From Catajapyx aquilonaris (taxonomy: Eukaryota): a DNA stretch of 64,000 nt. The notes under the pieces were generated by a model. That model saw only the letters and a program-made list of their open reading frames with translations. It was not told where the DNA came from and did not search any database. Both the position numbers and the translations under genes were made by a program. The stretch lies in NCBI GenBank assembly GCA_000934665.2, contig KZ538540.1:1-64000 (forward strand), given 5' to 3'. Below are positions 288-64,000 of this stretch, one piece after another; position 1 is the first letter of the stretch; each line of letters starts with the position of its first letter.

Positions 288-573
288 NCGCCGCCGCCCG
301 CCCGCCCGCCCGCCCATCCCCACCTCCCCCAGTTGCCCTCCACCCTCCCGTCGGAATCGAACCGAAAAGAGGTCCAGGTTGTGTGGAACAGCTAGAAGTG
401 CGGGCGCTTTAGTGAGAGACTTTTTTAGCAATAATTTTACTGCGCGCGGGCCGCCGAGAGGGACCCCGTGCACCCGTTTATCGTGCGTGTCGTATCGCCA
501 AGGAGAGGTAGGCTGGCTGCGAGGTGAGTGCAGGGTTGACTGAGGGAGCCGAAGGCGCCTCCCGCCGGCGGAG
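1..573 (+). promoter_or_regulatory. GC/CpG-rich promoter and 5' leader of the ZCCHC gene
   Basis: CpG-rich, with (GCC)n and poly-C tracts, an AAATGGCG YY1-like motif near 20 and a short uORF at 22-48; lies directly upstream of ATG 574. Confidence 0.5.
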
Positions 574-33572: not shown

Positions 33573-36500
33573 ATGAGCCAGGCAACAGCATGGAGCCAGC
33601 TGGGGATGGCTGCCCTCAGCCACCCCAGCTACACAGCCTCAGAGATCATGCAAGGGTCAGTCCTCTCCATTGACGGCAGGGAATTTCCATGTCTGCAGGA
33701 TGTGCGCCAACCCAAGCCATGCCAGAATGCGCCGGCAATGAATAGTTGTCTGGAGGCACCACCATCGTACTTGTCATGCTTGTCATTGCATAGTTCCACT
33801 CATGCAGCTGACAAGTCAATGAGCTTCATAAGTGGATTCTTTAGCAATGGCCAGGCCTCACCCCCTACCGAAAATGAGTCTTCCGCTGGTCGCAACAACA
33901 AGTACTATTTCTCAGCTGGGCTCTCCCTGCTTGACATCAAGCAGGCACTGCAGAAGCCAGGACATATTCACCTGACACATATCATGTAAGCACAACGGTA
34001 ATAGTTAGTCATTTTCACCCATTTTCACAGGCAGAAATACACCTGAATCAGTGTACACTAGGATCTTCACTCTAATATGTGCATGCAGAAATAAATTTTT
34101 CTTAATATAAATTTATTTTGTAGCCAACCTCATGAAACTACTCGAGTGTTACTGACAAAACCAGTTACAGTATTTGACTTCTCATGTTTGTTAAAATGAA
34201 GAGTACCATACCTGCAATACTATCGTTCAACTGATGATGATAATTTCATTGCAGGTCATCCCTCAAGCGTCTCGTCCAGAGCAGCATGCGCACCAATCAC
34301 TACCCATCACCAGCAGACTTGCATGTCATCTACCTTTTTGCCAGTATTCAACGTCCATACCTGAACAAATACAACTTGATTCCTATGCCAAGGTGATTAT
34401 GACACTACACAAAAATGACAGAATATTACATTATTGTAATAACAGAACTTCTTGATATAATCCTTCATTTTGGTTTTCAAGGGCTATAAAAAATATTGCG
34501 TTTCAAAGTTCTGACAGTATTTTTGCTTCCAGGATTATGGAGAAGTTGCAGCGAGGGGAATTGTCACTAGAAGATGTCTCTGTGGGCATGGAAACTGCTG
34601 CCAAATATGCTCAGAACCTTTTGCAAGAACCATCTAGTCAGTTTCCCAACTGGGATGTTATAGTACTGGATGGAGTGGGATGTATTTTTGAGCCATGTGC
34701 TATAGAGGTAGTAAGAGCTAAGGAAAGCTATGAATCAGTGTGATTTACCTTTTTTTCCTTTTTCCTGACAGGTGATTCTTCCTATACTTAAATTAATGGG
34801 GTATAAGGTTCTGGACTCCCAAGCTGTGATTTATTCTCGAGGAGTTAGAGAGCGCCTCAACCGAGAAAGGCTGGAGTTGGTCTGTGCTGAAGTGGCTCTG
34901 GCTACAGGAGAATTGCAGCTGCTCAGGAGTGATTCACATCCTCTCTTAACATTTCTTGACAATGACCTGGACTGTGAGAGTTGCTGCGAGGTAAGTAAAA
35001 TTATCTAAGTCACAAATGGATGGCATGGTGGCATAGTGGTTATGGCCCCAGGCTTCCACCTCATGTCAGAGGATGGATTTTCTCTCGCAAAAGAGGTTTG
35101 GTGGGTTCTCTCCATACTCATGGGAGTTTCCTTGGAGTTTTTTTTGTTTTCCCTAATTCTCAAAATTCATAATCAGCAGAGTAATTAAAGATTAATATAA
35201 AACCTCTTAGGCTATATTACTCATGTTGCTTTTGGTGACTTAGGGTTTTCATTATGTGGATCAGCTACACCTGACAGTTAAATAATCTAACAAACCGAAG
35301 CGGTAGTGGTGGAGTCGTATGGTGTCCGACTGCAAATCGGGAGGTCCTGGGTTCGAATCCCGGAGGCTGGCGACCCTGACCATGGTTTTCTGTGGTTTCC
35401 CATGGTCCTCGCAGGATAATTCCGGGGTCGTTACTGTAATCATAGGCCACAGCCGCTTCCTTCCTTCCCTATCCTTGCCTCATTCCGATGAAAAAGTAGT
35501 AAAAATGGAAAGAGTTCCAGACAAAAAAAAATTGATAGAAATCCACCCCTAGAAAAGCCCGGTTGGCTGATAATGGGGTATCAAATTAATTAGGGTGAAG
35601 TGGGGGAAGTGCACACCCGGGGTAAGTGCACATATTGTGCCGCCATATTGGAATGAAAATGGCTGACGACACCAAAACGCGTCAGCTATGTAGCTGCACT
35701 GTGCAGCTGACAAATAGGATAGGCTATATTTGTAGTAATTTACATAGCTAACAAACTAAAACTGATGTTATTTTCGCTATAAAACTACAGCTGACTGTAA
35801 AAATCTGGCAGAAAATCTGGACTCGGGTGGTGCAATCTACTCTTCTCAAATTACACGCTGATTAGTCACAGTCAAGAAAGATGTGTTGACTGCTAGGTAG
35901 TGGGGCAATATAGAAGGAATTGGTCAAAATGCCTATTTTCAAAGATGATGACAGACATTCTTGAATAAATTCTGAGTACAGACGTGGGGGGGCCTGTGAT
36001 TCTATGACATTCATGAGCATGTTGGATGTCATGGAAGCTGGGGCGGTGGAGGAAGGCTCCAGACCATCATCCATATGCCATTTGGCATGTAATGGTGCAC
36101 AGAGTGTCATGTTTGCACCACCAGAATCAAACATTTTTGCCGGATTTTTAGAGACCTACATGTTGAAGCAGTGCAGACTTCCAAATGGCCTAATTACCAA
36201 AAATTCTGAAATCAAGTACAGTTTCTTTCCCAGGGATTTGAAAGGAACCTTAGGACTAGGTTGTTGAATACAAATTAAGGATTTGTCATATGCCAGATTA
36301 TGTTTTGTGAATACTTGTGCTATAATAAAATAATAAGAATAATTTGTTATCCTGTGCTTGGATTCTGGGCTCTTAGGGGATCCTCTTTATGCTCCTGATT
36401 TTATTCTCTTTCTATGCTGCTGATGGAATTTGGTTGTGGGAGGAAATGGGCGAACCTTGATAAAACCTGGGAGTACCCTGAGAAAACCCATGGGAACATG

Positions 36501-39500
36501 GAGGGAACCCACGGAAACTCTTTCCACATGAGAAATTCATCTGTCCGACATAGGGAAAACTTGGGACCTCCAAGGTGAAGGGTTCTTGCATTAACCACTA
36601 TGCCAATGGGTGGCATTTGGTTTTTCGTGAGGAGTTCCCCCTAACAGGACAGTACTAGTAAATAATTCTTGAAAGATTTAAAATAGTACCATTGAGTAAC
36701 TTTTTGGGTGAGAAATGATGAAGATTGAGCGAGCCCTCCATGAGAGTATATGGAGGTCATGGTCAACAATTATTTTTACAGCTGCTTCTTTCACAATAAA
36801 AACATTTTCTGTTATTGTCCAAGTTTGCAGGCCTATTTCTTACCACTTTTTGTCTTTGGAAGATTGCTAAAAAATATAATATGAGATAAGTGAAAAAAAA
36901 CTATACAGAAACAGTATTACTTTACAAAAGAAAACCCTCCTATCACTTTAAAAGCCACTGTCACATCGTAAATGAAAACCATCAATAGAGGTTTGTCATG
37001 GCCATTTGGAGTGAAATATTGTAGTAAGGTGTACCTTTCATACTGAAAGTTGCCTGAGCTCTATAAAAGGAATAATTGTTGTCAATTGCTTGCTTATTAT
37101 CAGCTACTTGTTGGGAGACACGTAGACTACATGCTAGTACATTACTGTATGACATTTTTACATTTGACGTAACTTGTGAGATTCATGGTACATTGTAATG
37201 CTGTTGTATTATTTTAATATCACTCACCTTTCCAGATATGAGCAAGTAAATATGAATGTTCAGTAATAGTTTATATTCCCATGTGAGTCTCTGTGCCTGA
37301 CAAAACTGTACCACTCTGGTTACCATTTAATCGAATCCGGAAGTTTTTTGCGGTCATTGACCAAAATACCATTAGGAACTTGTCTAGGAATAGCTCCACT
37401 TTCAGCCACTACCAGTGCACTCCATCAAGGTGATGACAAATCTAAGAGGTGCTGTTGTGTATGCTCTTATAGTAAGAATTAATAGGAGCTTACCTATTAG
37501 TAGCACCTTAAGAAAAGAAGCCTAATCAAGAAATGTAAAAATAAAAGAAGGGGAGAGAGAGGGCTTTAGACTTCCTTTTTTTTGCATTTATCTGGCAGAG
37601 AGTCAGATCTAATTTTAGTTCCTACCTTAGGTGTTGGCTTCCCGAACTCAGGCTCCTTCCCTTCCTGCATGTGTGTGTGTAGAGTAGTGAGTTTAGAAAC
37701 TGCTGGGGAAGACTATGGTCTATGGAAAGTGTGTGGAGATGAGTGTGTGGAGTGACAATAAGTTTTTCTTACCTACTCAGTGAAGAGAGTGCTGCTGACC
37801 TTTGGTTTTGTTATAGTTCAAAACTACTGAGGCTGGTGAATCAAGATGTTTAATGTAAGAATGTGCCTCTGTTTAAGAGTGAAAGTGTGCTTAGAGTATT
37901 GCATAGATACAACTGAATCAGATAGTAATATAGTCCGATTTTATATGCACTGCAAACTCGTTTGGCAGGTTATATGAATACTAATTGTGGATAATGATTT
38001 CGTATACGTATTTGCATTACCAAATTTTATAATAATCATATATTTTTCCTTCATTTGTATTCGTACATCTTGCTCTTCCTCGTATTTCTTTTTATTGAGG
38101 ACAAGATTATTTGAATGAACAAACTTGTGTAATATTTTGATTGTCACGCACATTGCAATGTTGAATGATATTAGTTAAATAGAATACCATATAGGTGAGC
38201 AAGTGCCTTTTTTATCTTATTAACATGTGACGTATGGAAAAATTTATCTGGAGAACTATTACATATACGAAGGTCTATTACCTGCCATAATAATAAGGAC
38301 AAGTAATAGTATTAGCAAATGAATAATACCATAGTTTACTGGTTGCAATATATACACTCTTGAAAATTACTCATGTGCCCAAAAAACTGGCTTGCTTCAT
38401 GACTATTTTAAACATTGCACCACCTTGAACAGAGTTGAGGAGTGGAGGCCATTTTGGCTGCAGTAGAGGTATAGGAATGGAGGCCAAAGTGTATGCATGC
38501 ATGGGAACCTCCATAAATAGAGGATTCTGCAAAGGCTTGCTCCAGTTATGTTGACCACAGCATTTGGTTTTCTCAGCCTTCAGATTCAGACCGGTGGCGA
38601 ATGATGCAGGCCAATAGGTCTCCTCAACTACGCCCAGGTCGAAACATGCCTCAGTGGGTCACTGGCCCAGTAAGTCTGTGTGGTGTGATACATATATGCA
38701 TGTATTTGTTTAGAACCATAGTTTACTGGTAGTGGCATTAACAGTTATGAGTTATTTGGGTGTGATTGTAAATTAATTCGTGGAACCTATTAATATCTAC
38801 GAGTAAATGCCGATCTGCAATTCAAAATTACCCCAACTAAGATGAATGATTTCATGGACTATATAACATTTAAGGCAGTAAGTCAGATTCAATGGAAGGT
38901 AGCACCAGCAACAATTGATTGTTAAGTGGGTTGGCATATCCAGATCTGAAATGTGGGTGATAAACCTGATTGTCTGACTAATTAGTCGAGGGATAACGAG
39001 TCTTGTCCATAGAGACTTTGTTAAACAGGCTTTATTATGCAAATACAAGCAATTAATTGTTGAAAATTTTATGCTCATAACATGTGGGATTGGAATAAAA
39101 TTCCAGCTATAATGCTTCATGTAAGTCTTTGTTTTTTAATCACATAGCTGGCTGGAAAGTGCACTCAAAGATAAGTTTATTAATGCTGCTTAGGACTTGC
39201 CATTAAAGCATTAGAATGAAACACTTGATAATATGCTGGTCATGACCTAGTGGTCTGATGCTTTCTCAGAACAACACTCTTGGGTGAAAATCACAGTGGA
39301 ATATGGGCATGGTTCTGGGGGATCATTTGGTAGGTCAAAAAGAAAAATCAGTCAGTGACAAGTACAGTTTCTACAACATGCTTCATGATAATAACATTAC
39401 CTGCATCTGACACTCAATCCGAATCCAATAGCAGAAAGATTAACAGAAACCAACATCTAGCAGATAGGAGAAAAATTATTGTTTTCTCTTGCCTATTGAT

Positions 39501-42500
39501 GAACACTTGAGTTATGTACAGCCCCAAGCATAAAGGAGATGCTGTGGGCCTTCTCTGACCTTCCTTTATCGTACTCAAATTAATGGACTCTCTTTGGCCC
39601 AAGTTAGCTGCTTTAGGCTTGTGCTTGTGTATTTAACACCGGATATTTTTGATATCGTAATGGCAGGGATTGGCAGAGCACCCTGGCGAAGGGGAGGGCC
39701 TGGCGTCTCCAACGTAAAGGTGCATTTACATGTGAGCAATTTGATAGTGCGATAACAGCGCTGAGTAACCCGAGTAACCAGTATTGTTGTAGGCGAAAAT
39801 CGATTGTTACGTTCACCTCAAACAATATTGGTTACGTCACTCAGCGATGACTTCACTCATCAAATCGCGCACATGTAAACGGGGCTTAACCTTTAACTAC
39901 GTAGGTGGAGCCTGAGAGGCTCCAACCACTATTTAAACGCATGTAACTTTTTAATGAAATGTTTTTTTCCCCCTGTCCTTTGATGACTTTGTCACAAAAA
40001 CCTTTCTAAGCATGAAAAGAAGAAAGAAAAATTTTAAGTTGCCATTCTTTGGCTGAAAAAATTCATAACGAGGAACAGGTCCCACCATGGAGCCGCTCAG
40101 GCTCCACCTACGTAGGAAAGGGTGCTGTCGTTTTCCCTATCTACATGGAGAGCTTCTGAATAGGGAAAACGATGGCACCCTTCATTACGTAGGTGCCTGA
40201 GTGGCTCCAGGTGGGACCTGTTCCTTGTTACGATTTTTTTTCTGTCGTATGCTGACTCAGTGTGTGATTTTTACATTTTCGGAAGCCTAATGATCTGAAC
40301 TGCACTTTCTGTATGTGAAAAGTCCAATATAACAATAATTGAGCTGATAAGCAGAGATTTAAATATACCGTCAAGAGCTCTTGATACCGTTGGAACCGCT
40401 CAGGCTCCACCTACGTAGTTAATGTGTTTCGGCCACCTACATAGTTAAGGGTTAATGCTTGGGACTGTACATATGGAGAGCACTGAATACTGTTCAGTGA
40501 TTAATATGAAATGCTTCAAATAGGATATGCTTGAGATTGGTCAATCCCTGCACCTCTTTCTCTCTCCCTCCCTCGCACCTGTCTAAAGTGGAGGAGAGGT
40601 TGAAAGTATTTTGGAAATAAAGAGTGACGTGTGTGTTCCTTTCAGGGCATGTTTATTGGTTTGGGTTAGAGGCAGTTTTTCTTGATGGCCTGCCTATTCA
40701 CAGCCTGAGGGGGAAAAATCATCCAAGATAACATTAAATAAGAGCATGTGCTGCAATGATTAAATTTTAATCCTTGCAGCACATGCTCTTATGGCCAACT
40801 TGAAAGACTAAATTAAAAATTAGTGGTGTGATTAGGGGATTTGGGGTCAAGAGAAAAATGTATGCTCATAGTTACCAGGACTCCCCTGAAAATCATTGGG
40901 CAGTTCCCTTAACAGCACTTACATTACAGCAACTCACATTACAATTCTGGCAACTATTAAACAAGAAAGTCAAAATTTTTGTACTGTTTGCCAAGATCCT
41001 TTTTGTGACTAGATGACTCTGTTTTGCCCATTGCTGTGCAGTCAGTACCAGAATAGGGAGTGTAGGGGAACACATGCAGAAAATGTTCATAATCAGAATT
41101 TGTTGTATGTGGCATGTCTCATCCATGATAGCAGTGGATATTTCACTGTTATTTTGACGTCATATCATTGAAACAAATCACAAAGGCAGCTGCATCATGG
41201 TAACAGCCAAACTGCTGCTTCAACCTGGGACAGACAGCATTAGCATTGTCATCAGTTGTATTGAAATAGCAATATTGGAAGTTAGTATTAACTACACATT
41301 GCAACCACGAACTAATAATGAAAGGCTAGTGAGATCAGTACCTAGGTTTCATTGCCGATCTGGTAGCTGGCCAGTTGCCATTTAATTTAAATCGGGACAA
41401 TTTTCACAATTTCCTCTTTCTCTGGAAATTATGATGGATAATTTTAGCTACAGTTGAATGTCTGCAAATTACCATATTACCTCACATAAAGCGGCATGCC
41501 AGTATAAACGAGGTCAACCAGCATGCCGGTATAACCTGGGGGTGGCCAGCATGCTGCAATAACTGAGAAAATTTCCATGATTTTGATCCTAGTAAAATTT
41601 TTTGGAATGCTCTTGGTACTGTACTGAATAATGTTACGGAGTGTTATGGGGAAAAATCAGCAAGTGTTCAAGGCTGTGAGATGAGCTGTGAGAATATGCA
41701 AGTTCTGTTGCACAGTGCAGAAAGTGTGACCATTGACCAATCCCATCGTCACCCTGCTTTGAGAGGGAAATCCCCTACCTACTCTATTACAAAGAATCCA
41801 GCCAACCACTCCTTCAGTCCTATGTGGTCCTATGCTTTGCTCAATAGCTCGCTAGTTGCAGGTTTCACTGGTTATATACATCAGACCAGGCACATTGGTA
41901 GGTAGCTAATAACAATAGCCTAACATGAGTAATGTTTATAAATGTAAGGGTTAATTTCGAAAAATGGTATCTCCCAAAAAATCAGCGAAGTGGGGATAGT
42001 GAAAGTAACAAGTGCTCGCTGCAGGCTACTCTACAATGCACTGTTGATACAAATTCCTTATTTCTACACACTAATTGAAAAGAGCATTATTAGGGCATGC
42101 CGGTATTAGATTCAGAAAATGTGCCTTTTATGTAGCCTTTTCCCGGATTTCGATTTCAGGCAAATATCAAGTTATGAAAGGCTAATATAAGGGAAAACCT
42201 CGCCTCATACCAGCATACCTCACTTAGACCGGTATGCCGGTATAGCCACCAGATCATGGATTTCTAAAAACTGGTCAACATCAAACCTCATGCCGCTTTA
42301 TGTGAGGCAACATGGTAGAAGGTGAAATTAGTCTTGGCAGTAGTATTAATAGTAGCAACAGTATTAATTGTATTAAATTTAAGGTTTGTAAATAGTGAAA
42401 TTTATCTCTTAGCCAGGTAGACTCCTATCTCTAACTAAACTAGAAACAAGTTTGATCACACTCACCAGTAGTACAAAATTAGTCCACAAATCATATTCTA

Positions 42501-45500
42501 ATTTTTTTTGCCCTTTTTGAAGATTTACTGTTGTTTTGTGGGAAAGAGCTAGTTATGCTTGATAAGTTCTAACTTTACCTGTGTAACTTATGTTTCTACT
42601 AATAATGGCTACATTTTACTACCTTCTTACCATGTAAGTTAGCAAAAAGTTGGTTATTTTCATTCAATTTAGTAGAAGTGTAGCCTGCGAGTCACATGCA
42701 CGATTAGCCAGAGTCACCCAATTACGTCCTCTTCCCGAAATGATCTCTTGGCATCTATTCAGTTAGGTGCTGGCAGTATAATGTATGTTTGCAGTCTTTC
42801 CACGTGTGTGAAACACTTGGCGTCAATGGGTTTAATGTTTAGGTGGACTCATTGAGGAAAAAGTGTTTTCATGGGTTGTTACAAGAGATTAAAATGTTAA
42901 ATGTTGCTTTTTCTGAATGCAAGTTGAACCTTGGAATTAGTAATGTCTTTATGTGTCACAAATTTAACATGTACAAAAATTTGTGCCCATTATCTTTCAG
43001 TGCAATGTACTATTTGTTACAATTAATATTGTTTGGACTTGTGAAACATCATACTCATATTATAGTTGGCCTTACGGGAAGCTGTGAGGAAAAGGACTGT
43101 TTTTAGTGTAGGCATGTAGACACATATTTCCATGGCAGACTCACAGTGTTGGGGAGCAAAGGGATAAAAATAGTGGGCGCCAAAGATGCCTGCTTAGGGG
43201 AGTTCAAAATAGAATTGAGCTTGCCGCCCGAAGGCATATATTTTTTGGGATTTCTTAAAAGAAATTTCCACTGGACAAAACAATCCTATATAAAATAATA
43301 TTCCCTTTCATGTGTAATTTGTAGGTACGGCCTGTGATTCGACCACCCCCAATTCCCAGCACAGAACCTCCAGAATCAGAGTATGAAGAAATTGGGATGC
43401 CAAACCAAAGTTACATTAACACTTCATTTCAAAAGAGGGCAGGTAAGATGGTCCTAACCATATATCATACTTTGAGCCAGCTGTTATCAGTTGCTAAAGT
43501 GTGAACTAATTCAGGTGCTGACAAGGACCTGAAGAGGGGTGATGGGCGTCACTGCGACCTGTGTGGGTGCTCTGCTCCCAAGGTGCGCTGTGAAAAGTGT
43601 AATCAACAGATATTTTGCTTCTCGTGTGATGACATGTACCACAGGCATCCTAAGCGACAGAGTCACTCCAGAAAGGTATGATCCATGGCTTTTAGTCATA
43701 GTAAAACCAGCTTGTAATGAGTGCTGGATTTAGCAGGAACTTGCCTGTCATACAATTTTTGTTTGTATGTGGTTAGCAATTAATTTGTATTGTTATTATC
43801 AGAAACCCTTCCTGTGCAGAAAATCCACACTCGGAAGATTCTTTTTACGACATCATTTATTATCATTGTTAACCTACTTTTTGGTCAAGGTTACATTTAG
43901 TGATATCATCTTTCATGGGAACTATTTGTAAATTCTAGGTGTAAGCCATTTTGATTCTCTGCTGCATGCACAGGAGAATGAAGATACTTTGTAGATGAGT
44001 TTGCTGTGAAAGTTACTCTGCTAAGAATTAAAAGCTAATGTGGAAATTTCCAGGAATGTGAGGAGACAGAGAGGAGTGTTGTTTGATTATTTTATTTTCA
44101 ATAAATCCACTTGGATTGCAAAGTAATATGCAAGTTTAAACTATAACTATTCAGTAGGCTCTGGTATGTGACACTTGAGTAGTCTAGTCCAGTTAAAATT
44201 GCATCACATCAGGGGCCGGTGTAATGGGTGTGCTAAGTTTTCTGTCAAATAGAGCACATACAAGTAAGTGACACTGTCACTAATGTCACCACTTGTGATG
44301 CGAAGTTGTCTGCCAAATGTACTGGAATCATCCTATTACAATAATCATTGACAGGCATGGCATTTTCACATTGTGTTTCAGGTAGGTCTGTTTAGAAAAA
44401 TCTTGTCACCTTAAGACTAGGTAGATGATGAACTGTTAGCTGCCAAATCAATCGAAAAATTTCAAAGAAATGTTACTGCATATAGGCCCTGGACTCAAGG
44501 ACTCCTACACTGCGCCCACCTCTTCCACCAAAGGGTGAGCAACACCAGCCTCCAGTTCCACCTCCAAGGAAACACAAGAGATTTGGATTACGTTCACTGA
44601 CATCTTCACCATTGTTGGGTCGCAGGGACAGTCAGCAGCAACAGCAACATAATGACCAGTCAGAAGTAAGTCTCAGAAAGCCTTTTGGGTGCAGTTTGAA
44701 TTCATTGCCATTTTTAATGTGGGAAATAAGTACGAGAAGGAAGAAGAATAGTCCCTTTCACATTATGCACATGGAACAGTGTTTGGTTTTTTTGTGTTGA
44801 TTTTAACAGTTGCCCAAAAGAGAATTCTCCATCATGGAAAAAGTTGGGAGTTTGAGGAAGTTTATGGGGAGCAGGCCACTGCCTCCTCCTCCTCCTCCCA
44901 AGTCCGAGGGTAAGTTTTTCTTGGGTTTTTAAATGAGTGATTTTATTGGGCTGTCTTTGTAGTTTTGCACCAGTGTTGTAGTAACTTATTATGAAAGTGT
45001 AACTAATTGCTCATTATTTTATACAGGCTGTCTCATTCCAGTTTTTAAAGCATTGACTCTAATAATAATTAATTGACTTGATCTGAGTTTCTAGCATGGA
45101 GTGTCTTTATAGGCTGGTGATAATTCACTAATTCATAGAAGAGGATTCTGAACAACAGAACAGGTAATTTCAGCATGAAGTTGGCCCAAGCTAAGCTTGT
45201 GTAATTTGCTGGAGTTTCCAGCCCTCCTCCCCATACCTGGCCATACTAAGAGGGGTGGAAAACCAAGGAAGCCAATCAAACTTAGCCTTGTCTGACTGTA
45301 ATCTAACTTTAATAACTAATGCTAGTCATTGAAATTAACTTTCTTTGGAAAAGTATTGAATTAAAACTGCTATAATTATTAAACTGTAATTATTATTATA
45401 GCAGTTGAAATGTATAAGTGTGTAGGTGGTAATTGTTTTAAAAACCTGATCTGATACTTGAGCTGGCAGAGACTGCAAATACTGTATATAGTTGCTGCAT

Positions 45501-48500
45501 CCAGTCAAGAGTACTGAAGTAACAGTAATTTTGCACCAGGAGTATGCAAATATGTTAGTTTTAAAAACACCACAAAAGCAGAAATTGAATCAGTATCCTC
45601 TGACTGATCCTTATACGTAAAAGTGAAACTCATATGGATGGCATGGAGGATGTTGAGTTAGCCGCCAGCAGTTCACCGAGGACACAAACAAAAAACTTAA
45701 GTCACCACTAGGTGATGAATGGCATGTTTGTTGGAATGGTTTTAAACTAATACACACTCATTGCATGATGATGTGGTTCTATACGTGTGTTAAAAAGTGG
45801 AATAAACTTATGGCAGGGAACCTTAATTGGGACACCTTATTGCTGATAAAATTTCAATTTGTGAAATACTCTACATATGGATTTAAGTGTAATTATTATT
45901 ACAAAAAAGGAAACTTGGAGTAACCCGATTAAAACAAAGCAACCTATTTTCTTCTGACTGATTACAAATGCCATAGAAAGAGTATGCTACAGTCAATGTC
46001 ACTCTTGCTACAAGAAAAGGTATGCCATTTGAAGTAATAAGCCACATGCAATTTGCTAATTATTATTGCAGCTGTCCATGAGATGTCACACAATCCCACA
46101 TTGGAATTGGAACCAGAAAGCATGCAACAGCATCCTGGTTTTCGGCATGAATTTGGTCCTTCTATGCGACAGACATCGTTCAAAATGGCCCAAAGAATGG
46201 GCCAACCTGACACCATGTGGCCTCAGCAACAGGCACTCAATCATGCACCTTCCCTGCCTCCTAGAACATCAAACATCCCTCCCCACACCAACTCAAGTAT
46301 CCCTCTCTCTGTGATGGAAATGAGTGAACTAGAAGCAAACCAAAGCAGGAGGATACCTGTGAGTGGAAATGGAAGCTGCCTTTCAAACCAAAGTGACCAG
46401 TTGGTAAGTAGACCTAAGGCTGCTTCACAAATTTGGCCGAAAATGAGCAAGGAGGGAATACAGCATTTTTCAAAATTAGTAACATGATGATTAAAACAAA
46501 TAATCATTAGTACCGGTAATATATGTGATTCACATCTGTCCATGTGACATCCAGTAATACTAAATTTCAGTAACTGTTAATCAGTCGCAAGAGGGGTAAA
46601 AGTACTGCAATTAGTGTGTTACCAGTGCATCTACTAATCATATAGTATTGATTCATTGTGAATGCATTGTAATATTTAACCCTCAGACTTTTATTCATAG
46701 GAATACCTCATTATGGTCTATGGCCCATCACTGAGCTATTACAGACAACTGTTAAAATTACAGGAACTGTTAAAAAATTCAAATTCTTTATTCGTGCTTT
46801 ATGGTGAGTTACAATATGTTTATGGAGGTAAATGGCCATGCGATATTTTGTTAGCCATTAAGTGGGTCATGGTCCAAAAGTATAGAAACTGAGAGTCTTA
46901 GCTTCACTCCCTCTTGCTAAACAATTTTGTCAATTGGACCTTTTCCCACCTTATGTAATGTGGATCCAAATCCACTCCTCATGTTGCAATTCATCTGACT
47001 TCTAAACTTATCCAACTCTCCCCTAGAAGCATTATGTAATTTATGGACACTCCGTGAATACGTATCACTAAATTCTAAAATTAGAATGGGTTTTTTGTAG
47101 AAATAATGTCATCTTTGTAAAAAATTTCTGGTCATATAAAATGCTAAAGCTGGCTCCGTTCTTTGTAGATGTGGTGTGATCTTACTTCATAAAGCAGCAT
47201 TGTGAAATTACATTGTGTGTATCTTTACTACAGCCTTCAAGTAGAGACAGTGGCTACCCAGATTGGGAAGCTGAGAGGATGGAGATTCGACGCCATTCTG
47301 CAGCTGGTGAATGGGCTACTACTGGGAGATTGCCCCAAGGGCCACCCAGAACCAATCCTGGACCTCCATTTGCCACCAGGAGAAGGAGAAGTGACATGCC
47401 CAATCCCTTCCAGCAGCAGACAGGACAAAGGAGTCCCTTCTTTGGCAGAGGGATGGTGCAAAGTGCTTCAGTCAGTGACTTGCAAGCAGCTAATATGACT
47501 TTCCATCCTGGAATGCATCAGGTTGGTACCTTATATGATTACTGTATATTTTTTTTGCGTAGAATTTAAGGTGTAAAATATAATGCAATGCTACCATAAT
47601 AGTAGGAAAAAAGTATTTAAAAAGTATACAAGTATTTAAAAAAATTTACATGTCACAAGGCCTTTCAGTGACTAAATCATATTAAAGTTGTGAACTGTTT
47701 AGTGAAATTATGAGTACTCTTTTAACATGTGGGCATCATTAAAAAAAAATTGATGTGTACATTAAGACAGAAGATAGACACATGGTTGGGCTGAGGCTAA
47801 ATAAATGGTACTGCAAGGGAATGTTGCCATGCTGCATTCTTGTGACCAATTTTTAACATGTCGATATTTTTAATCCAGGCCCAGTCCATATCACACCTCA
47901 ACTGTCCAACCTGCCACAACATATGGGTTTCACCTGATTCTTGGAGCAGCCCATGCACCCAGCATGGACCTATGGGATACACCAATGGAACTCTGAAGCG
48001 CACTCCCAGTGTGGGATTTGTGGATGCCCCTTGGCCACCCCACATGTATCCCTACCACCTTCCCCAATTTGGTGTCCCTCCTCCTCCTGCTCCACCACCC
48101 ATCCCCCCACAGGAACGTCCCGGCTCTCCTGCTGTTAGTCACCGATCACACCGCTCTCAAAAGGCAGGGAAGGGCAGAAAGCCCCGCAGGAAGGCACGAA
48201 GGGGTGGTACAGAGTCAGATGAGATGTACTCAGCAGCCAAGACAGAGTCGTCAGATGATGAGGGATCATCCAGAGAGAGGGTACCAACACCGAAGCATGC
48301 ATGGCAGTGCCGTCACTGCACGCTAATCAATGCAGGAGGTACACGGGTGTGTGCTGTGTGTTGTAAGACATACCAAGGAAAAGGTCATAAGGCGAGGAGA
48401 AGCTCAGAAGATGACAGAGAGGAGAAGGAAGAGGAGGCACTGGGCCCCAAGATTAGCTTGCGGCAACCTAAGGCGAATCAATTAGCATCTGATCTGCAGA

Positions 48501-51500
48501 GGAAGTTGCAGATCAAGTCTAGCAATGAGGATGTGTATGGGGTTTCCAGAGCCAGTTTGAATCGAATGAAAGGTAAGTTGGGATGTCATTTTCATATTTA
48601 ATTAACCATGACCCTCAGAAGTAATATTGTGCATACTCAAAAAGAGGAAATTAAAGATAAGGACAATCAAATAAGTACTGATGATTTTTTAATGACCTGA
48701 GGTTGGAGATCCTATGCAGGACAAGTGCTACTGACCTTACCTCATGCTTGACCTTTAACTTGACCCTGAAATATGATATTTTGAAAGTATTTTGGATTTT
48801 ACTGACAGAATTGGAAAGAGGTAAAATAAAAGGCAATACAAAAAAATGAAAAACAAAAAATTGCATTGTCACATGATAATGAAAATATGTGGTGCCGATT
48901 CAGCCATGATGAAAGTACTTGAGTACAAAGCAAATTGTCCTTTTTGTTATACAAAATGACTTTAGTAACTGTTCAGCATACCTTGTGTGCCAGAACTCAG
49001 CTCACATTAGTGTAAGTGGAAATTTCACAGATGCTTACCCATCATGAACTCATATTCCAAGTTGTGTATTCATGCACTCATTGTCATGCCTGATTGTGAA
49101 GTGCCAGGTGCAGGTGAAGAAGCATCTGTGAACTTATTAACCCTATGGATATGACCTCAACTGCGGAACATTTAGTGGTGCTTTCATGTAATGTTTCTTC
49201 TGCAGGGCCTGATACTGTGCAAGATACACAGGCCCAAGTGGAGCCTGGAATGAAAATGGAGTCATCAGTTCAAAGCACCGATGGAAGGGATATGGCCAAT
49301 GAGACTTCCATGCAACAAGACTCTAAACCTGAAAGTGGAGCTGCCAGCTACATATCATTTGGAATGGGAGATGTTGCTGCAGAGTTTAATGCTGTACTGC
49401 AGGAAATGGAGCCAAAGAGAGAGGAAGTGCGTAAAGCTACTCCACCTGCCCAGTTCCAACCTGTGCCTGAGGCAAAGCTTCAGATGCAACAGATGCAGCA
49501 GATGACAGACACATCTCTGTTTCAACAAAGCCCTATGTCACAACCTCCAGTTCAACAAAATCCTGCACCACAGCATCAAATCCAGCCAAGTGTTTCACCA
49601 CAGCCTCAAGTTCAGCTTGAAACATTTCCACTTCAGCAGTCAAAATCTGAACCACAAGCACAAGCACAATCTCAGTTTGTGCAGCAACAAATGCAATTTC
49701 AACAGCCACAGCCTACATTTCATCACCAACAACCTCTTCAGCAGCAACCGTCTCAGCCTCCATTTCAACCCCAGGCACAATTTCAGCAGCAACAGCCTCA
49801 GCCTCCATTTCAGCCTCAGGCACAATTTCAGCAACCTCAGCCACAACTGCAACAGTCACAGCCTGAGCCAATCCCAGACCCCCAGCCTACTTCAACTGGC
49901 TCACGCCAGACTTCACCTCCTAAGCCATCCCCTCGGCGTGTAGTTCAAAAGGTCTCCATGGGAGTTGGTCCCTCACCCCCAAGAGAAGTGGTGACCCATC
50001 CCTTGAAGAGGGAAGCCTCTGTTGGAACAGACAGGCCATGTCTGATGCACTTTGGACAAGAGTCAAAGTCTGGATATGGGAGCGATGATTCAGATGCATC
50101 CCTAGACACTTTCAAGAGCAATAAGGGAAAAGTTATGAGCTCAAGGGGTACTTCACCTCCACCTCAGAATATTTCCACTCAGGTGAATTATAAAGATTAA
50201 TGTTACAGGGAGACATTAATGTTAACATCATTAGAAAGTTTTTAACTCATTAAGTGCTGGTTGTAAGGACAAGTTGAGCAAGCTATAAAGATTGTTTCCT
50301 TTTTCTGTGTACTGTATATTGTATCCATGGCAGCTAAGTCTTAGTTCAACTTTCAATCTGACCATTAAAGATACATTGATGTTGCTGAAGGGTAATTAAT
50401 TCAGTGTAAATTGGTGTAAGTAAATTTTTGCCATCTGTAGTTGTAAAATGAATAACACTGTAATACATGAAAATCTGGATCTTACAGACATATGATGAGC
50501 TGCCCACCCCAAAAAGCCCATCAATGAGATCATCACCAAGGATACATCGATCAGTGTCTCAGCATTCAGTTGGAGTTGAACCTCACAGTATAAATCCATC
50601 TGCCAGCCGCAACCCAGCAATGAATCATCATCATGGACGATACCACTACCACAGAAGGAACTCTCCAAAACTGAAGAGAAGCCGATCTATTCACATCGGA
50701 AACCAAACTGAAGAATGGCTTTTTCCGCACTCCAGGCACATGCATCGTTCAGCTAGCAGGCAGAGCCTAGCCAGTGATACTCAGGTTTGTTTGAATGTCA
50801 ATTTTGCATTATGTGCATATAAAGACGTATATGGACTCACATTAGAAAAGAATGATATTATTTAATACCTTGCTATGATGTGAAGTGATGCTCATTTGTA
50901 GTGTACTAGGTGATTTACCAAAATAGTGGAGTGATATTTTGCAACCAGTATTGCTCCAGACAGGTAACCCATGGAGAAGCCAGATTGTCAAAATAAAAAG
51001 TTGGCATCTATTTTACCATTTTTTATGTAAATGGGAAATTCCTTGAGAAATTAAGTGGACTAGTCAACAGCATGTGGATAAGGCTGGTGATTTGTTCTAG
51101 TCACTTCTACACGTCAAGAGATTTAGTTCACCTTAATGAAAAAGTGAAATAAGTAGGGAGCCAAACCAAATGCTCCTGGAAGCTTGGGTCCGTTGCTACA
51201 GTATGGTTTCCTGCGCGTGCATGTTTGCCGACCGTTCAAAAAAAACCTTTCCAAGAAGCAAGTAAGTACCATATTACCATGCAGATTGTGGCATGCCAGT
51301 ACAAAGCAAGGTTGACCCAAAGGCTTTCACGGAACTGATCCTGGTAGTATACATTCTTGCAGAAGGATCCAGGGGGATCAGGGAGTGATGTAAGTGTTCA
51401 CGTTTATGAAAAATGCATTTTTCTAGGCTTGCTATGCTCCAAGGTGTACGCAATGCCCACTCCTTGTCATTGTGAGTTATTTAGCACAAGCTCATTGCAT

Positions 51501-54500
51501 AATGCTGAAATGTGATCGAAACTGCATGAATGTGTGTCTCACCATTCTTGCCATTAACTACTAAATGGAGCGTGCGAGGGCATGACCAAATGATGTTACC
51601 TTGTCCAGTCTCTTACGAAGTTAAATTGTGAGGTATTTCAGTTCCTTGCATTTTCTTCTTCATGTGGTCATTAATTCATTGCTTACATGCCCATTATATT
51701 GCCATGCAATAAAAAATGCGTACTAAGGGATGTCTTCCTGGTACCTCTGCTTGAGAATAATGAGAATTAATTTTCCCCTCTTATCATGGCTGATTTTCAG
51801 AGTCTGCCAGTATCAGCTGGGTCATCCAGAGAGGGCAGCCCAACCCCCCACTATGGCCCATCCCACCGTTACCAAAATGATGATTGCTACACTGACCACA
51901 GATATGAAGTATTTGACTCGTCCTCAAGGGGAAAGCAGCAACAGGAAGGCATAATAATGACTGGCAGGGGGTATGGGGATAGCTTGAGGGACTTGAGGGA
52001 CAACAGAGGAGGGGGATACTTTGACCACAGGAAAAATTCCCTTGACTGGAGTAAACGGGGAGGATACTCAAGAGTAAGATCTCTCTTGTGCCAAATAGTG
52101 TACTGATTAACCCACCCACTCAGGAATATGTGTATTTCCCTCTTCCACATGATTAATTTGTAATCTGATATTCCAGCATGGCTTACCTTTCCATTTTATC
52201 CATGTGTGTAATGTGAAAGGGTTGTTTAAATGGCAATGTAAATAATGGCGTGTGTGAATTGGTTGTTTTCAGTGGTAATGTGAATCCTAGTGTATGTGAT
52301 TCTGTGAAAGAGGATATGAATGTGACTGTTGGGAATATTAAATGTACTATTTTTTTCGTTTCTTGCATCAGATTGAAAATGGAGATGCACCTCATCACCG
52401 CAGTCACAGTCGAGTGGATTACCAGGCACCAGAATCTGTCCTGAGGGACCTGGACAATATGACTAATTTAGAAGAGGTGATCCAGAAAAGGAGGCAGCAA
52501 CAGGAAACCATGAAACTACAAGGAATGGAGCTTGTCAAGCTACTAAGAGTGAGTGTGTTGTAACATATCACATGTTTTGTTCTGCTGCTGTATATTTTCA
52601 CATGTTTTTAATGGTAAGGTAGTGACGTGTGCCAATAACTTGAACACTACTGGTACTTGGAATGATGAGGGTTATTAATCATCTACCCAAGTGGTACCTG
52701 CAGAAGAAAGTTGCATAGAGACAGGTGTACAAATAGTGAAACCTGCAGAGGAGAATTNTTACAAACCAGCTCGTTGGCGCGCGCACGTTGCCAGATGATG
52801 AATTCAATGTCGTGAGGGTTGCGGGCTATTCAGGATCACGTTAATAAGATCCTTTGTAGCACATCATCACATACAACAACAACAACAACATCACGACATT
52901 TCCCTATGAGGGGTAGTCATCATCACATAATTATCTGAATTGAAGTTATAAGTCCATACACCTTTCAGACTGAATTTGTCAAGCCTGTCACCAACTTTTT
53001 GCTCATGAGGGTGATGTTTCTTGCCCACAATCCATTCATGCCCATTTTTTTCCATGTTATGATTTGCTGAGGCTATGAGATGGCCTCTAATGCAGTAATT
53101 ATTCCGCTACATACAATGTTTCCTTACAAGGGGACCTAAAAATGCTATGTTTCTGCATTATATATGCTTTGCTATAGCTGACAAAAAAATTAATTAATAA
53201 TTTTTTCTTGTTTCTGACACTGCAAAACAAGGTTCATTCATATTCATGCAGGTTTCACTGTAGGAGAATTGCTCTCATCTGCCATGTTATGATGCGTAAA
53301 TGATCTTTCTTTCCAGTTAGATACTTTAATATTTGCACATGTATCACTTACTTAGGAAGCAGAACAGCACAACTTCACAGCAGATGACCTTCAGATTGCC
53401 TTGAATCACTGTGAAGAAAAGAACCCACTAACTTGGCTCCAAGAGAACCTCCGTAACATGGTGGATACAGTAGTCATTTTAGCAACAAACTATGGACATG
53501 AGAGAAAGGAGAATGATATTGGAACTATCTCTGTCACTGAGGCAAGAGATGCACTCAGATCACACAAAGGAAATGTGTGGTCTGCTGTCACTGAGTGTGT
53601 GGAACAGAGGCAAAAGAAAGTGAGTTTATTTGAAATGTGTGATTTTTAAAATAGACTGGACAAATTTAGGAGCAGTTGGACCAAAGCAAATTTCTGAATA
53701 TTTCTGATTATGCACAAGTATTCGCCATACAAAATCCAAGAAAACCCCAAGATTTCCTGCATATTTTGTGTCCATACAACTGCACTTTACTCCTGTTTCA
53801 AGAAAAAAAAAAAGCCCTACCAGCAAAACCAGTAAGGACGAAAGCCACTTGCAGGTCTTGTGCATGACCTTTCTCCTCACCTGTTCTGCAGAGAGGGCTT
53901 TTTTCTTATTCTCTTATGGCAGGTACTTCTGGAATGTGCTAGTGCTAATGGAGTGGCAATTCTATCTGTGACAGTATGTGGAGCTGTCTGCAAGGGGAAA
54001 TTTTACTCGAGAGGATGTAGTGACAGCTCTGACAGTGAACCATGGCAATGTTGAGGCTGCCTACCTGGAACTGAGCAAGTCACAGCTAAAGCCCTTTCTG
54101 ATGAGGATTTGGGGGCCACCTGCTGGCCAAGAGAATGAGAGTGGAAATGCTGCTGCTGAAACAAAGGCATCCGTAAGAGCCCCCACGGCACAGGAGGAGA
54201 AAGTTGGGGAAGAAGGTATTATTATTTTATTTTTTTTTCATTTCATGTTATCCAAAATCATTACATGTGGTGGTATGAATAATGAGTAGCTGTGATCCAT
54301 AATGATGTCTCATGGCATGGTGTAATTTGTGGGAGGAGGCCAACAGTGATAACACTCATACCTTTTTAACAAATCAGTAGGCCTCCTCAAACATTACACT
54401 GTGGGCTTGGCAAGCATGTAAAACTATTCAAATCATTGCTTCCTCGTTAATCTTAATGAGGCCTTTTTTGCCTCATGGCTGGGTTGTGTTGCACTGCCTA

Positions 54501-57500
54501 TGATATATGTGTAGAGGGGAGTCATAGCAGCCAGAAATTAAATCAGTTTGACATACTCTCGAGATGAGGGAGAGGGCTTCACTGTATGTTGTGCTAAATA
54601 ACATGTGAATTTCTGTCCTGTTTGTAACCCATGTCTTTCTTAACGTGTTCTTATTTGAAGACCTCAGGGGAAGGTCCACTTTTTGTCAAAAATGAGTTAC
54701 ATATCTCAGAAGATAGTTTCACTAGCGTAGAATATGATGGTTTGGTCGTGGTTGGGGAGTAATGATCATAGTACAATATGGAAGGCTCCGAAAGTGGGAT
54801 TTACAATGGAACCTTATGGGCCTTCGAAATTTGAAATAGGAAAATCTCAGTTTCACCTGCATTGGACCTTGATTGTCCTTCCCTCGAGGTCTTCATATCT
54901 TGCCATGCATTATGCAAATTACAGAGTAATACTGTCATGCCTGCCACAGTAACCCAGACCACTCACTGACTCATGCCTGATGAAATAACAATTGACAGAT
55001 TCCTATGAATTTGTCAAGTCAAGAAATTGTTTAGTTTGGTGATGGCCTTGTTTACTAACCTCACGTCATGTTTGCAGATGACGTTTCAGAATTTATGGAT
55101 GCTCATTCTGAACTGGAGTCACCAGGTGATGTGCTGATCAGAAAATTGGACCAAGCAATGGCAGCAGGACCAGTCCAAAAAGGTAGCAGTGACCAAAGTA
55201 ACAGCTCTGAACAAAAACTAACCTCCACCATGAGTGATCCCGACCCACCTGCAAACACGGTGGAAGGTCGGCCAGCAGAAGGTGGAACAGTAAGGGAGAA
55301 GGAGCAGGTGGAGGAGGAGGAGGGAGAGAAGGGAGTCCAGGTTGTTGAGGCACAGGCCGGGACTATTGTGGCTCAATTCTTGCAGGCCGAGGCCGCAAGT
55401 AGTGCAAGGGAAGAGGAGGAGGGTAGAGTAGAGGACACTATGGGAAATGGACCAGAGGACAAGGTGGGTGGACAGCAGCCTCCTAACGATGGAGAAACAT
55501 TGGCTCAAACAGATGGAGGGGAAGCACTGCAGACAGTCGAAGCAGCCAAAAATGAGATGCAAGAAACATTGGTTCACACAGTAGCATTAGAAGCAAATGC
55601 TCAAGCTGATATTCTGGAGGAGAATGCAGTTACGAAGCCCACATCAGACCATACTCCTGAAGGCACTAGTGAAATTGGGTTAAAAGAAACAAAACCAGAA
55701 CTAAAAACTCAGAGTGGGGAAAATGACCATGTTGTGGTGAATAATGCTGTAATGGAGCCAAGAGATACCAACAATGATGATAAAGTAACAGTTGAAGAAG
55801 AGAAAGCAGGTGATATGGGTAATCCAACTGCTGCAGCAGAAGGATCTCAGCCTTTGGTGAATGGTGCCATTACAGCTGCAGGGGAGCCAAAAGTAGTCAA
55901 CGGCATCACTTTAGCTGTGGAAGACATTCAACCGATAGTGAATGGTGTTAGAAAAATTGAGGAAGAATCAAAACCCATATCCAATGGCAACAGTGCTATT
56001 ACAGAAATTGAAGGCAACAATAAATTAGCATCAAAAACCAAACCCAAGACAAGGCTGCAGGAGCAAGCAGAAAAGAAAGCAGCCATGCAAAAGCTCAAGT
56101 TTGATGTAAGTCTGTTTTGTACGTATGTAAGGATCACAGTCTAATCTCTTTGGTGAAAAATTGCAGCGACAAGTTAGGCGCTACTTGGCAGAGGGAAAGG
56201 TGCAGAACTATGAGAAAGCGGAATTGGCTGTGCAGTTGGTCAGCTTCAAATTTGATGAAGCTGAAGCCCTTTATGCAGCCAGAGAGTGCAGTAATATGGA
56301 TGCTGCGATTTCTTTCTTGCAGCAAGAGTGCGACCTTTGTGCTTCCAAACACACTATGAAACAGGTGAAGAGCTACTTTCTGGTTTCTATTTTATAAGAC
56401 AGTGCAGTAGGTTTAAAATGCAAAAGAAATGGCTACAAAAAATAACTCTATAGTACTATACACTTTATATGGAAAGAAAACATTTCAAATTAAAACCTTG
56501 GAACATTGCTGTGACCAAATAGGAAATGGAGGAATCCATTGCTGAAAGTGAAATGAAGACATTAATCTATCTTTCAAACTGCTAGATGGTGTCTATGCTG
56601 AGGTGCACTCACCGTTGCTGTCGGGACTGTGCAAAGGACTACTTCACTATCCAGGTTAGGGACAAGAGTATTGTTGATGCTGTGTGCCCATTTTGCAAGG
56701 AGCCTGACCTGGGCAAGGAGGAGGGAGTAGAAGAGGAAGGAGATTACTTTGTCCACCTTGACATGCTGCTCAAGGGAATTCTTGACCAAAATATGCATGA
56801 GCTCTTCCAGAGGAAGCTCCGAGATAGGACGCTTATGAAGGACCCAAACTTCAGATGGTGTAACAAGGTACAGATTGTAACCTATTAAATAGTTTTCCCA
56901 CTACTACATGCAGATTTTTGTTACAAAGTAGTTCATTAAGCAGATATTACACTGTGCATATTAAACTTTGAAAAATGCATAATGCCATCTCCTATGAGCT
57001 TTGAAACAGGTCACTAAATTTTGGCCAGTTTATATCAGTTGTATGCTATGATTTTGATGCTTTTCATTAGCCCTCTCTAACTTGAAGTCTTCTCGTTTAG
57101 TGTTCATCTGGATTTATAACTGATCCCAATCACAAGCGTCACATATGCCCTGATTGCAAGGCTGTCACCTGTGCCATGTGCCGGAAGCCTGTAAGTATTT
57201 CAGTGCTGTATGGAAAATATTACTATGACCAGCAATTTCTTTTTCTTTTAAATGCATCCAGTGGGAGAAGCAGCATGAAGGCATATCCTGTGAGCAGTTT
57301 GCACAGTGGAAGGAAGAAAATGACCCTGAGAATCAGGCAGAGGGTGTGTCTTGTTACTTGGCCAAGAATGGAATCACCTGTCCCCGATGTCATCAGGTCT
57401 ACTCTCTGGCCAGAGGAGGGTGCATGCACTTCTCCTGTATGCAGTGCAAGTTTGAGTTCTGCAGTGGTTGTGGACAGCCCTTCCGTATGGGGGCCCAGTG

Positions 57501-63580: not shown

Positions 63581-63830
63581 TTATTTATTTATTGATACCC
63601 CATTGGGAGAATCGGCGCTCCATTAGAGGGGTGGAGTACCACCATTGGATGGGGCCAAGGATAGGGAGGGAAGGAAGCGGCTGTGGCCTATTATATGGAA
63701 GCAACCCTGGAATTATCCTGGGGGGACCGTGGAAAACCACAGAAAACCACAGTCAGGGTTGCCGGCCCGGGGAGTCGAACCCAGGACCTCCCAATTAGCA
63801 GTTGGGCTCCATAACCACCACACCAACTTG
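63550..63830 (-). mobile_element. tRNA-derived SINE with (TAAA)n tail
   Basis: Reverse complement of the 35298 SINE body and head; the (TTTA)n run at 63550-63590 is the tail. Confidence 0.75.
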
Positions 63831-64000
63831 CTTTGGTCTATGTGATGAATAATTAGGCAACATTATGCCGAGATAAGCCTGGAATCTTTGGTTATAGCTG
63901 CATTTTGATGAAGCTCACTTGCCAGATTGTTTCTGTTTATGTGGATAAAAGATGGGTCCTTTCCAGGATCATTTCTGGATTCAGTTACAATAATCTTTAT

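Follow-up and report, generated by a model that had tools for sequence, protein, structure and literature searches.

A 64,000-nucleotide stretch of the Catajapyx aquilonaris genome (assembly GCA_000934665.2, contig KZ538540.1, positions 1 to 64,000 of the forward strand; hereafter the window) was analysed for a gene of LUBEL, the arthropod form of the ubiquitin ligase HOIP (RNF31). The plus strand from 33573 to approximately 58500 probably represents one LUBEL gene, including a strongly diverged HOIP-type PUB domain that would be encoded above all by two small exons, designated C and D. The homology of these two exons to the PUB module of HOIP is very likely, both from direct sequence comparison and via a relative in a sea spider. 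The domain order predicted for this single gene would be PUB, a short motif encoded by exon E, B-box, NZF, UBA pair and RBR-LDD, which is the order of vertebrate HOIP. In human HOIP the PUB domain recruits enzymes that trim linear ubiquitin chains, and the exons described here would encode a very diverged copy of such a docking domain.

A PUB-like module in exons C and D

Four exons were delimited upstream of the recognisable part of the LUBEL gene (in the splice sites given here and below, a slash marks the exon border):

33573-33985, plus strand: exon A, putative first coding exon, opening with the ATG at 33573; low-complexity N-terminal extension; donor CAT/GTAAGC.
34255-34392, plus strand: exon B, 45 whole codons and a split codon at each end.
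34533-34707, plus strand: exon C, first half of the PUB-like core (helix alpha-A, loop and start of alpha-B).
34772-34990, plus strand: exon D, second half of the PUB-like core (L..GY, strand region and a long C-terminal helix ending in HP).

An initial annotation of the window had placed three exons between 34255 and 34990 on the plus strand; these correspond to exons B, C and D, in whose translations the reported strings recur, ILKLMGYKV among them. Exons A to D are all open, have GT..AG borders and fit in phase across three short introns, as read from the sequence. Exons A and B share a codon, of which exon B brings only the last base; at its other end, exon B stops two bases into a codon that exon C completes. 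Exon C ends in phase 0, and exon D is in phase 0 at both ends, with a consensus donor (GAG/GTAAGT).

When exon D was compared with the PDB (177,635 sequences), six of the seven matches at E up to 10 were to the human RNF31 PUB module, with E values of 0.56-1.0. The matches were collinear and covered chain residues 120-178, toward the end of the crystallised module. This result counts because the top match is the N-terminal domain of the protein that is orthologous to the downstream gene, and stands in the expected order.

The spliced N-terminus was also compared with 220 stored LUBEL homologues. The only match was to residues 38-144 of hypothetical protein GQR58_008806 from the sea spider Nymphon striatum (1041 aa; blastp E 0.015), which had been recovered with the first 140 residues of an insect LUBEL and is referred to below as P0193. 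Using phmmer, exons C and D found the same protein (E 0.026), the next best being at E 3.1. A B-box is present in 148 of the 220 homologues and begins before residue 150 in 147 of them; P0193, where it begins at residue 284, is the sole one with more than 150 residues ahead of it. In the PDB, the top six of the 17 matches of P0193 were to the RNF31 PUB (E 4.7e-4 to 6.8e-4), with residues 5-145 aligned to chain residues 21-160. The Nymphon LUBEL is seemingly split into two models, P0193 and P0081, for both of which the longest contig is 1,114,153. P0193 carries the PUB-like domain, the B-box and the NZF, and in P0081 the RBR-LDD is joined to domains of a reverse transcriptase and an integrase, which points to a transposon within the gene or to a merged model.

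Exons A to G (exons E to G are listed below) could be aligned with P0193 in one collinear alignment, from the PUB-like part through to the B-box. Exon C aligned to residues 38-88 and exon D to residues 97-164 of P0193, and MAFFT put both exons at the same places against all 1041 residues. The Smith-Waterman score of exons C and D joined against residues 1-180 of P0193 was 66. None of 2000 shuffles reached this score (mean 28.3, standard deviation 4.6, maximum 49), nor did any of 4073 sequence windows taken from the other 219 proteins (maximum 47). Exon C alone scored 43, which was reached by 1 of 2000 shuffles, and the score of exon D alone was reached by 51 of 2000. The signal beyond chance resides in exons C and D joined in order, and in neither of them alone.

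A profile was made from an alignment of P0193 residues 1-180 with exons C and D (alignment A1). All six of its matches at E up to 10 were to the RNF31 PUB, with a best E value of 7.9e-8 (35.6 bits); significant similarity to the solved HOIP PUB module was found in this way, by a profile that includes the Nymphon domain. Of the 23 columns where the window and Nymphon are identical, 16 are shared by human HOIP as well (L, NLL, W, F, L..GY, V, E, L, EL.L and P; hand count), and over 97 aligned columns the identity to HOIP was 26 for the window and 30 for Nymphon (hand count). In alignments A1 and A3 the initial GTG of exon D was rendered as M (MI for VI), which affects one edge column. For exons C and D, the matches of exon D, of P0193 and of the joint profile to the RNF31 PUB speak for the PUB homology that the initial annotation had proposed from an alignment by eye.

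Several results weigh against a HOIP-type PUB domain in these exons. The E value of 0.56 for exon D is, as a number, at chance level; exon A has one, unrelated, PDB match with an E value of 0.84. Exon C alone gave no HOIP match in the PDB, and phmmer with exon D against 1.84 billion representatives gave 0 matches. When the 494 open reading frames (ORFs) of 50 residues or more in the window were compared with P0193, the exon C ORF ranked second and the exon D ORF fell outside the top six. The check with HMMER against PUB models that had been suggested earlier went against the proposal: neither Pfam PUB (PF09409) nor SPATA2_PUB-like (PF21388) was matched at E up to 10, either by P0193 or by any of exons A to D, which were scanned singly, a procedure that halves any score. 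The gain of the joint profile is open to other explanations as well. Whole-length P0193 profiles scored 19.0 bits with exon C and 21.4 bits with exon D, compared with 21.6 bits for P0193 alone; these profiles have 1042 columns and A1 has 122, so that the comparison is not like for like. Because the column spans differ, the rise to 35.6 bits may come partly from trimming; the agreement with HOIP at 16 of 23 columns is the alternative account of this gain. The A1 profile matched none of the other 219 stored arthropod homologues, the best E value being 0.94. Finally, the AlphaFold2 model of the Nymphon domain, made from alignment A1, was poor, with a mean predicted local distance difference test (pLDDT) score of 39.3, and Foldseek found no match to it at E up to 0.001.

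In the Foldseek list for this poor model, the first eight rows were HOIP PUB chains (E 0.18-0.66, template modelling score 0.24-0.28), an order that probably reflects the sequence rather than the predicted shape. When the peptides of exons C and D were modelled as separate chains of a complex, the score was 0.02 with a partner pLDDT below 50, which is evidence neither way. In a further search with exon D, none of 133 candidates among longer proteins scored, so that two very large protein collections in all yielded no relative of this exon; its best score in the ESM Atlas (0.78, restriction-enzyme clusters) was uninformative. A metagenome scan with exon D returned a single locus (L001), which was rejected as a chance stretch of 23 residues in a high-GC bacterial ORF.

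A PUB domain of another type, SPATA2/Tamo-like or p97-cofactor-like, that merely adjoins LUBEL is very improbable. In the ESM Atlas, residues 1-160 of P0193 placed an arthropod SPATA2 PUB-like cluster (0.85, rank 2) just over a general PUB cluster (0.83, rank 3), but both values are below the 0.9 line and serve as leads only; in the Foldseek list, a SPATA2 PUB appeared at rank 17 and PNGase at rank 45. On the other hand, the RNF31 PUB heads the PDB matches of exon D and of P0193 and is the sole match of the joint profile, while PUB chains of SPATA2 (5ljm) and PNGase are in the same library and none appeared at E up to 10. Moreover, the match extends through the C-terminal part of the HOIP module, and the C-terminal helix of HOIP is absent from PNGase according to the available text of PMC4017264.

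Alternatively, exons B to D could be relics of a PUB that have dropped out of splicing and now drift, or else chance ORFs. The codon-usage score was positive in the proposed frame for all four exons (0.06-0.27 bits per codon; known exons, -0.04 to 0.46), and in exons A, C and D this frame outscored both others. The score of exon A, 0.27 bits per codon, was reached by 3.5% of 431 null ORFs. For exons B, C and D it was only 0.06-0.11 bits per codon, which 13-19% of the null ORFs reached, and in exon B (0.106) one alternative frame was higher (0.218). The lengths of the ORFs were no more than expected by chance. The weak statistics of the single exons and the loss of a key pocket residue, Asn102 of HOIP, would also suit decay. 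However, four open ORFs have canonical splice sites and matching phases over three short introns, the columns shared with the very distant sea spider are those conserved in human HOIP, the joined C and D alignment scores far above its shuffles, and exon A is found in a contig of a sequencing run with spliced transcripts (see below). We therefore regard relics as improbable, and prefer a coding, HOIP-type PUB module.

The sequence ahead of the PUB core is less distinctive. Exon A belongs to no recognisable family, and has no relative in Pfam; exon B matched neither Pfam nor the PDB, and may encode helices ahead of the PUB core. One Pfam match in exons A to D, to Exonuc_VII_S (E 0.027), was taken as chance.

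The junction with exon E and the LUBEL gene

The following features were located downstream of exon D:

38577-38669, plus strand: exon E, LUBEL N-terminal motif SDRWR...MPQWV, phase 0 to phase 0, acceptor ttttctcag/CC.
43325-43442, plus strand: exon F, proline-rich stretch and EYEEIG motif; matched by 29 of the 220 homologues, E down to 6e-7.
43515-43675, plus strand: exon G, HOIP/LUBEL B-box; 70-80% identity to insect and chelicerate B-boxes; Pfam ANCHR-like_BBOX E 5.7e-4, under the curated cut-off.
47383-47518, 47876-48570, 49204-50179, 50485-50780 and 51797-51948, plus strand: middle exons, from a spliced contig of run X1 and tblastn.
Within 47876-48570, plus strand: NZF-like CxxC...CxxC, from the tblastn match of LUBEL homologues.
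53356-54187, plus strand: UBA_HOIP pair in exons of about 53356-53625 and 53972-54187 (boundaries approximate); Pfam, 80% identity to Anabrus LUBEL.
56586-58472, plus strand: RING1-IBR-RING2-LDD in about five exons (boundaries approximate); Pfam and tblastn.

That the downstream gene is an arthropod-type HOIP/LUBEL orthologue, as had been annotated, is clear from its UBA_HOIP, IBR_1 and LDD matches and its arthropod LUBEL relatives. In the window ORFs, Pfam detected UBA_HOIP (PF16678; E 4.3e-33 and 2.2e-13), IBR_1 (E 5e-18), E3_UbLigase_RBR, the LDD (E 8.6e-7 and 2.5e-8), and RING-type matches at 56586-56885. Of 198 candidate proteins, 194 matched the RING2-LDD exon at E up to 1e-10. In the list of 120 relatives, those that bear a name were all arthropod LUBEL or RNF31, with 64-79% identity and none closer. 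Six arthropod LUBEL/RNF31 proteins placed exons from 43361 to 58472 by tblastn. The gene has the RING1-IBR-RING2 and LDD arrangement of HOIP/LUBEL ligases, as well as the HOIP-specific UBA pair and the N-terminal B-box and NZF, with the Pfam score of the B-box below the cut-off.

Exons A to D are likely to be part of the LUBEL mRNA. The motif of exon E matched residues 4-39 in 67 of the 220 stored homologues (best E 5e-8), and insect LUBEL models begin 3-6 residues ahead of it. In the frame of exon E there is a stop at 38514-38516 and then no ATG before the motif, so that a coding exon further upstream must feed into exon E in phase 0. Exon D, which ends in phase 0 at a consensus donor, would suit this need, and the putative junction fits. 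The in-frame joining of 34990 to 38577, as the initial annotation had it, thus agrees with the splice signals and the phase that can be read at both ends. The exon at 38577 had also been assigned to the B-box; it is instead the short N-terminal motif of LUBEL, and the B-box lies in exon G. Among the chelicerates, most LUBEL models begin at the B-box, and these may be cut short. In the window the motif that opens the insect proteins lies in what is apparently an internal exon, which suggests that insects shifted the start codon to just before the exon E motif upon losing the upstream exons.

Sequencing run X1, the kind of which is unstated, shares 0.23 of the words of the window. One of its contigs (record 3; 2255 letters, 0 differences) spans four GT..AG joints between 47383 and 51948, from which it follows that the run carries spliced RNA-type sequence of the same organism. 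A second contig, of 348 letters, agrees with exon A without a difference (33649-33987), and another 9 letters at its end depart from the intron sequence; as the contig is on the minus strand, these letters would lie beyond the exon A donor. No X1 contig covers exons B to G or the junction of 34990 with 38577, and this missing cover is uninformative.

X1 contigs pile up on 35301-35967 (summed depth approximately 3500) and on 39303-39969 (approximately 245), which fits an abundant repeat family. A short repeat is present in two copies of opposite orientation, at 35261-35552 and 63627-63842, whose ORFs share REGRKRLWP. Because a tRNA-Ser(GCT)-like sequence lies within the second copy (63760-63831, minus strand), the repeat looks like a tRNA-derived short interspersed element.

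The joining of exons A to D to LUBEL has to be weighed against a separate upstream gene or a short isoform. In that case exons A to D would encode a stand-alone HOIP-like PUB protein of approximately 320 residues, and the LUBEL mRNA would start from another small 5' exon that gives exon E its ATG. A terminal exon D is conceivable since readthrough past 34990 meets a stop after five codons (35006-35008). The D-E joining is without RNA cover in run X1, and the insect LUBELs need just 3-6 residues ahead of the exon E motif, which a tiny unseen exon could supply. Nevertheless, the consensus donor of exon D is in the exact phase that exon E requires, a PUB followed by a B-box in one protein occurs also in the Nymphon model and in human HOIP, and the PUB that was matched is of the HOIP type, not that of PNGase, UBXD1 or SPATA2. 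We consider a separate gene or short isoform unlikely, and a continuous LUBEL gene that includes exons A to D the better explanation.

Other features of the gene and its surroundings were noted. The 976-base exon at 49204-50179 (plus strand), which is backed by the spliced contig, consists mostly of Gln/Pro repeats (...QPQPQ...), typical of the long linkers that enlarge arthropod LUBELs well beyond HOIP. The exon that opens the LDD, at 57881-58237 on the plus strand (the poly-Glu insertion exon, at approximately 57950-58234), contains a run of approximately 20 glutamates and more acidic residues. This insertion sits between the conserved ...IMFDT... and the LDD core, in a loop of the catalytic C-terminal domain. 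The ORF at 544-1149 (plus strand) carries a Vts1/Smaug-type RNA-binding domain (Pfam PF25479, E 1.8e-20) and seems to belong to another gene further upstream; the region is GC-rich and proline-rich, with short runs of N. In a quick IQ-TREE tree of the catalytic region (43 rows, no outgroup) the window was on a long, unresolved basal branch among the arthropods, with no starred clade; the exon E and exon F motifs suggest a pancrustacean affinity.

The peptide-binding pocket

The pocket of HOIP that accepts the PUB-interacting motif (PIM) includes Ile78, Tyr82, Asn85, Pro92, Tyr94, Asn102, Val104 and Tyr124, as described in the accessible part of PMC4017264. The numbering of the PDB chains is offset by 2 from that of HOIP, and with this offset all named residues fall on the right letter. 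The corresponding residues are:

Ile78: Thr in the window, Ile in Nymphon.
Tyr82: Tyr in the window (34606-34608), Ile in Nymphon.
Asn85: Asn in the window (34615-34617), Asn in Nymphon.
Pro92: Ser in the window, Leu in Nymphon.
Tyr94: Phe in the window (34642-34644; HMMER alignment), Val in Nymphon.
Asn102: Gly in the window (34672-34674), Lys in Nymphon.
Val104: Ile in the window, Leu in Nymphon.
Tyr124: Tyr in the window (34802-34804), Tyr in Nymphon.

The window has three identical, two conservative and three changed residues, including the cornerstone Asn102, so that the full set of pocket residues is not present. The KY..NLL helix, which the initial annotation had described as kept, does have the equivalents of Tyr82 and Asn85, and our own mapping from the alignments gave Asp-Gly at Asn101 and Asn102, where a replacement had likewise been noted. 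The same annotation had Tyr94 replaced. The residue indeed differs, but its identity hangs on the placement of a two-residue insertion: it is Phe in the HMMER alignment, a conservative change, or Asn in the earlier alignment. Before Trp95 both arthropods carry an insertion of two residues, (P/T)N, which creates a shared NWD, and a second pair is inserted before the position of Pro103.

As judged from the aligned residues, the helix would be kept, as would the side of the pocket that holds the Tyr (Tyr82, Asn85, Tyr124, Trp95), with the cornerstone Asn gone. The NWD loop and both insertions are common to two arthropods that diverged very early, which speaks for an altered surface that has been maintained and against free decay, as far as two sequences allow. 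Against this, the pocket may be dead, because Asn102 is missing and the mutants of this residue lose OTULIN binding in human HOIP: in the text available from PMC4017264, binding was abolished by N102D or N102Q.

It is proposed that the PUB-like domain would act as an N-terminal docking module, taking a short Tyr-containing peptide into its pocket, by analogy with HOIP. Whether the domain still binds a peptide ligand is somewhat doubtful, and a dead pocket is the chief alternative to a simpler Tyr-containing ligand. The kinked, OTULIN-type mode of vertebrates is not expected, because Asn102 is Gly, Pro92 is Ser and two 2-residue insertions are present in the alpha-A to alpha-B stretch. According to the accessible part of PMC4017264, all three PUB domains tested bind the p97 tail with micromolar affinity, and OTULIN is bound by HOIP alone. 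According to PMC3690481, OTULIN went undetected in Drosophila and occurs only in vertebrates and certain invertebrates. As a best guess, the partner would more likely carry a different or simpler motif, for example the universally conserved tail of p97/TER94 or a Tamo/SPATA2-type adaptor.

Comparison with known systems

The PUB of human HOIP/RNF31 (residues 1-184; PDB 4oyj, 4oyk, 4p09, 5ljn, 4juy and 8z30) is, like the module in the window, located at the N-terminus of the ligase, before a B-box-type zinc finger. The two are collinear from helix alpha-A to the final HP, and Tyr82, Asn85, Trp95, Phe105, Tyr124 and the EL.LL helix are kept. The identity is approximately 27% (26 of 97 columns, hand count), with two 2-residue insertions around alpha-A to alpha-B, and the window differs in having Asp-Gly for Asn101-Asn102, Ser for Pro92 and Thr for Ile78. 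Approximately 184 residues precede the PUB core in the window, compared with approximately 70 in HOIP.

Nymphon P0193 resembles the window in having a PUB-like domain (5-145), followed by a B-box (284-337) and an NZF. Both share NLL, the (T/P)NWD loop, both insertions, G.(I/L)F and IL..(L/M)GY, and both have lost Asn102. Unlike the window, P0193 has Ile at the position of Tyr82 and Lys at that of Asn102, and is without the exon E motif and the long extension of exons A and B; it is a gene model only, with its catalytic half in P0081. The Pfam families PUB (PF09409, with PNGase and UBXD1) and SPATA2_PUB-like (PF21388) belong to the same superfamily according to the literature, and of the named Atlas clusters theirs lie closest to the Nymphon domain.

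Drosophila LUBEL (CG11321) and other insect and decapod LUBELs share with the window the exon E motif, PP..EYE(E/V)I, the B-box, the NZF, the UBA pair and the RBR-LDD. Unlike the window, they are described without a PUB in the available texts of PMC5090701, PMC5413910 and PMC12154395, and their models start just before the exon E motif. The absence of a PUB from Drosophila LUBEL, as given in the initial annotation, agrees with the published text, as does that from Penaeus (PMC5090701 and PMC12154395, as far as available). In our own material, none of the 23 further LUBEL homologues that were scanned matched Pfam PUB at E up to 1, and PF09409 was on none of 240 listed homologue rows. Searches of the literature, as far as accessible, turned up no arthropod LUBEL described with a PUB domain; the supplementary alignments of PMC4017264 and PMC12154395 may bear on the known spread of the HOIP PUB.

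Tentatively, the PUB could be ancestral to arthropod LUBEL, and survive in several lineages as an arthropod-type domain with the (T/P)NWD loop, two short insertions and no cornerstone Asn. Such a domain would be invisible to Pfam, its pocket would be kept by selection for docking a partner other than OTULIN, and insects would have lost it by a shift of the start codon. It would usually be missed by annotation because it is encoded in small exons many kilobases upstream, and domain tables based on Pfam and gene models would under-report HOIP-type PUB domains, which is a practical warning. If a sea spider and a pancrustacean-like arthropod both retain a remodelled PUB, the domain would predate the arthropods, its loss would have happened inside the group, and this loss could be dated on the tree.

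Work on fly and shrimp treats LUBEL as a HOIP without PUB and assumes another coupling, in which CYLD binds directly to the RBR region and OTULIN is not involved. If the tentative reading of an ancestral, selected arthropod-type PUB is true, arthropods would have their own coupling of a deubiquitinase or of p97 to linear ubiquitination. The domain would also be a natural variant of the PIM pocket that lacks a residue essential for OTULIN binding in human, and as such a test of the ancestral ligand of the PUB. On the preferred reading, the gene in the window is a HOIP orthologue that combines the vertebrate domain order with a changed pocket, in a phylum where the PUB was thought to be absent.

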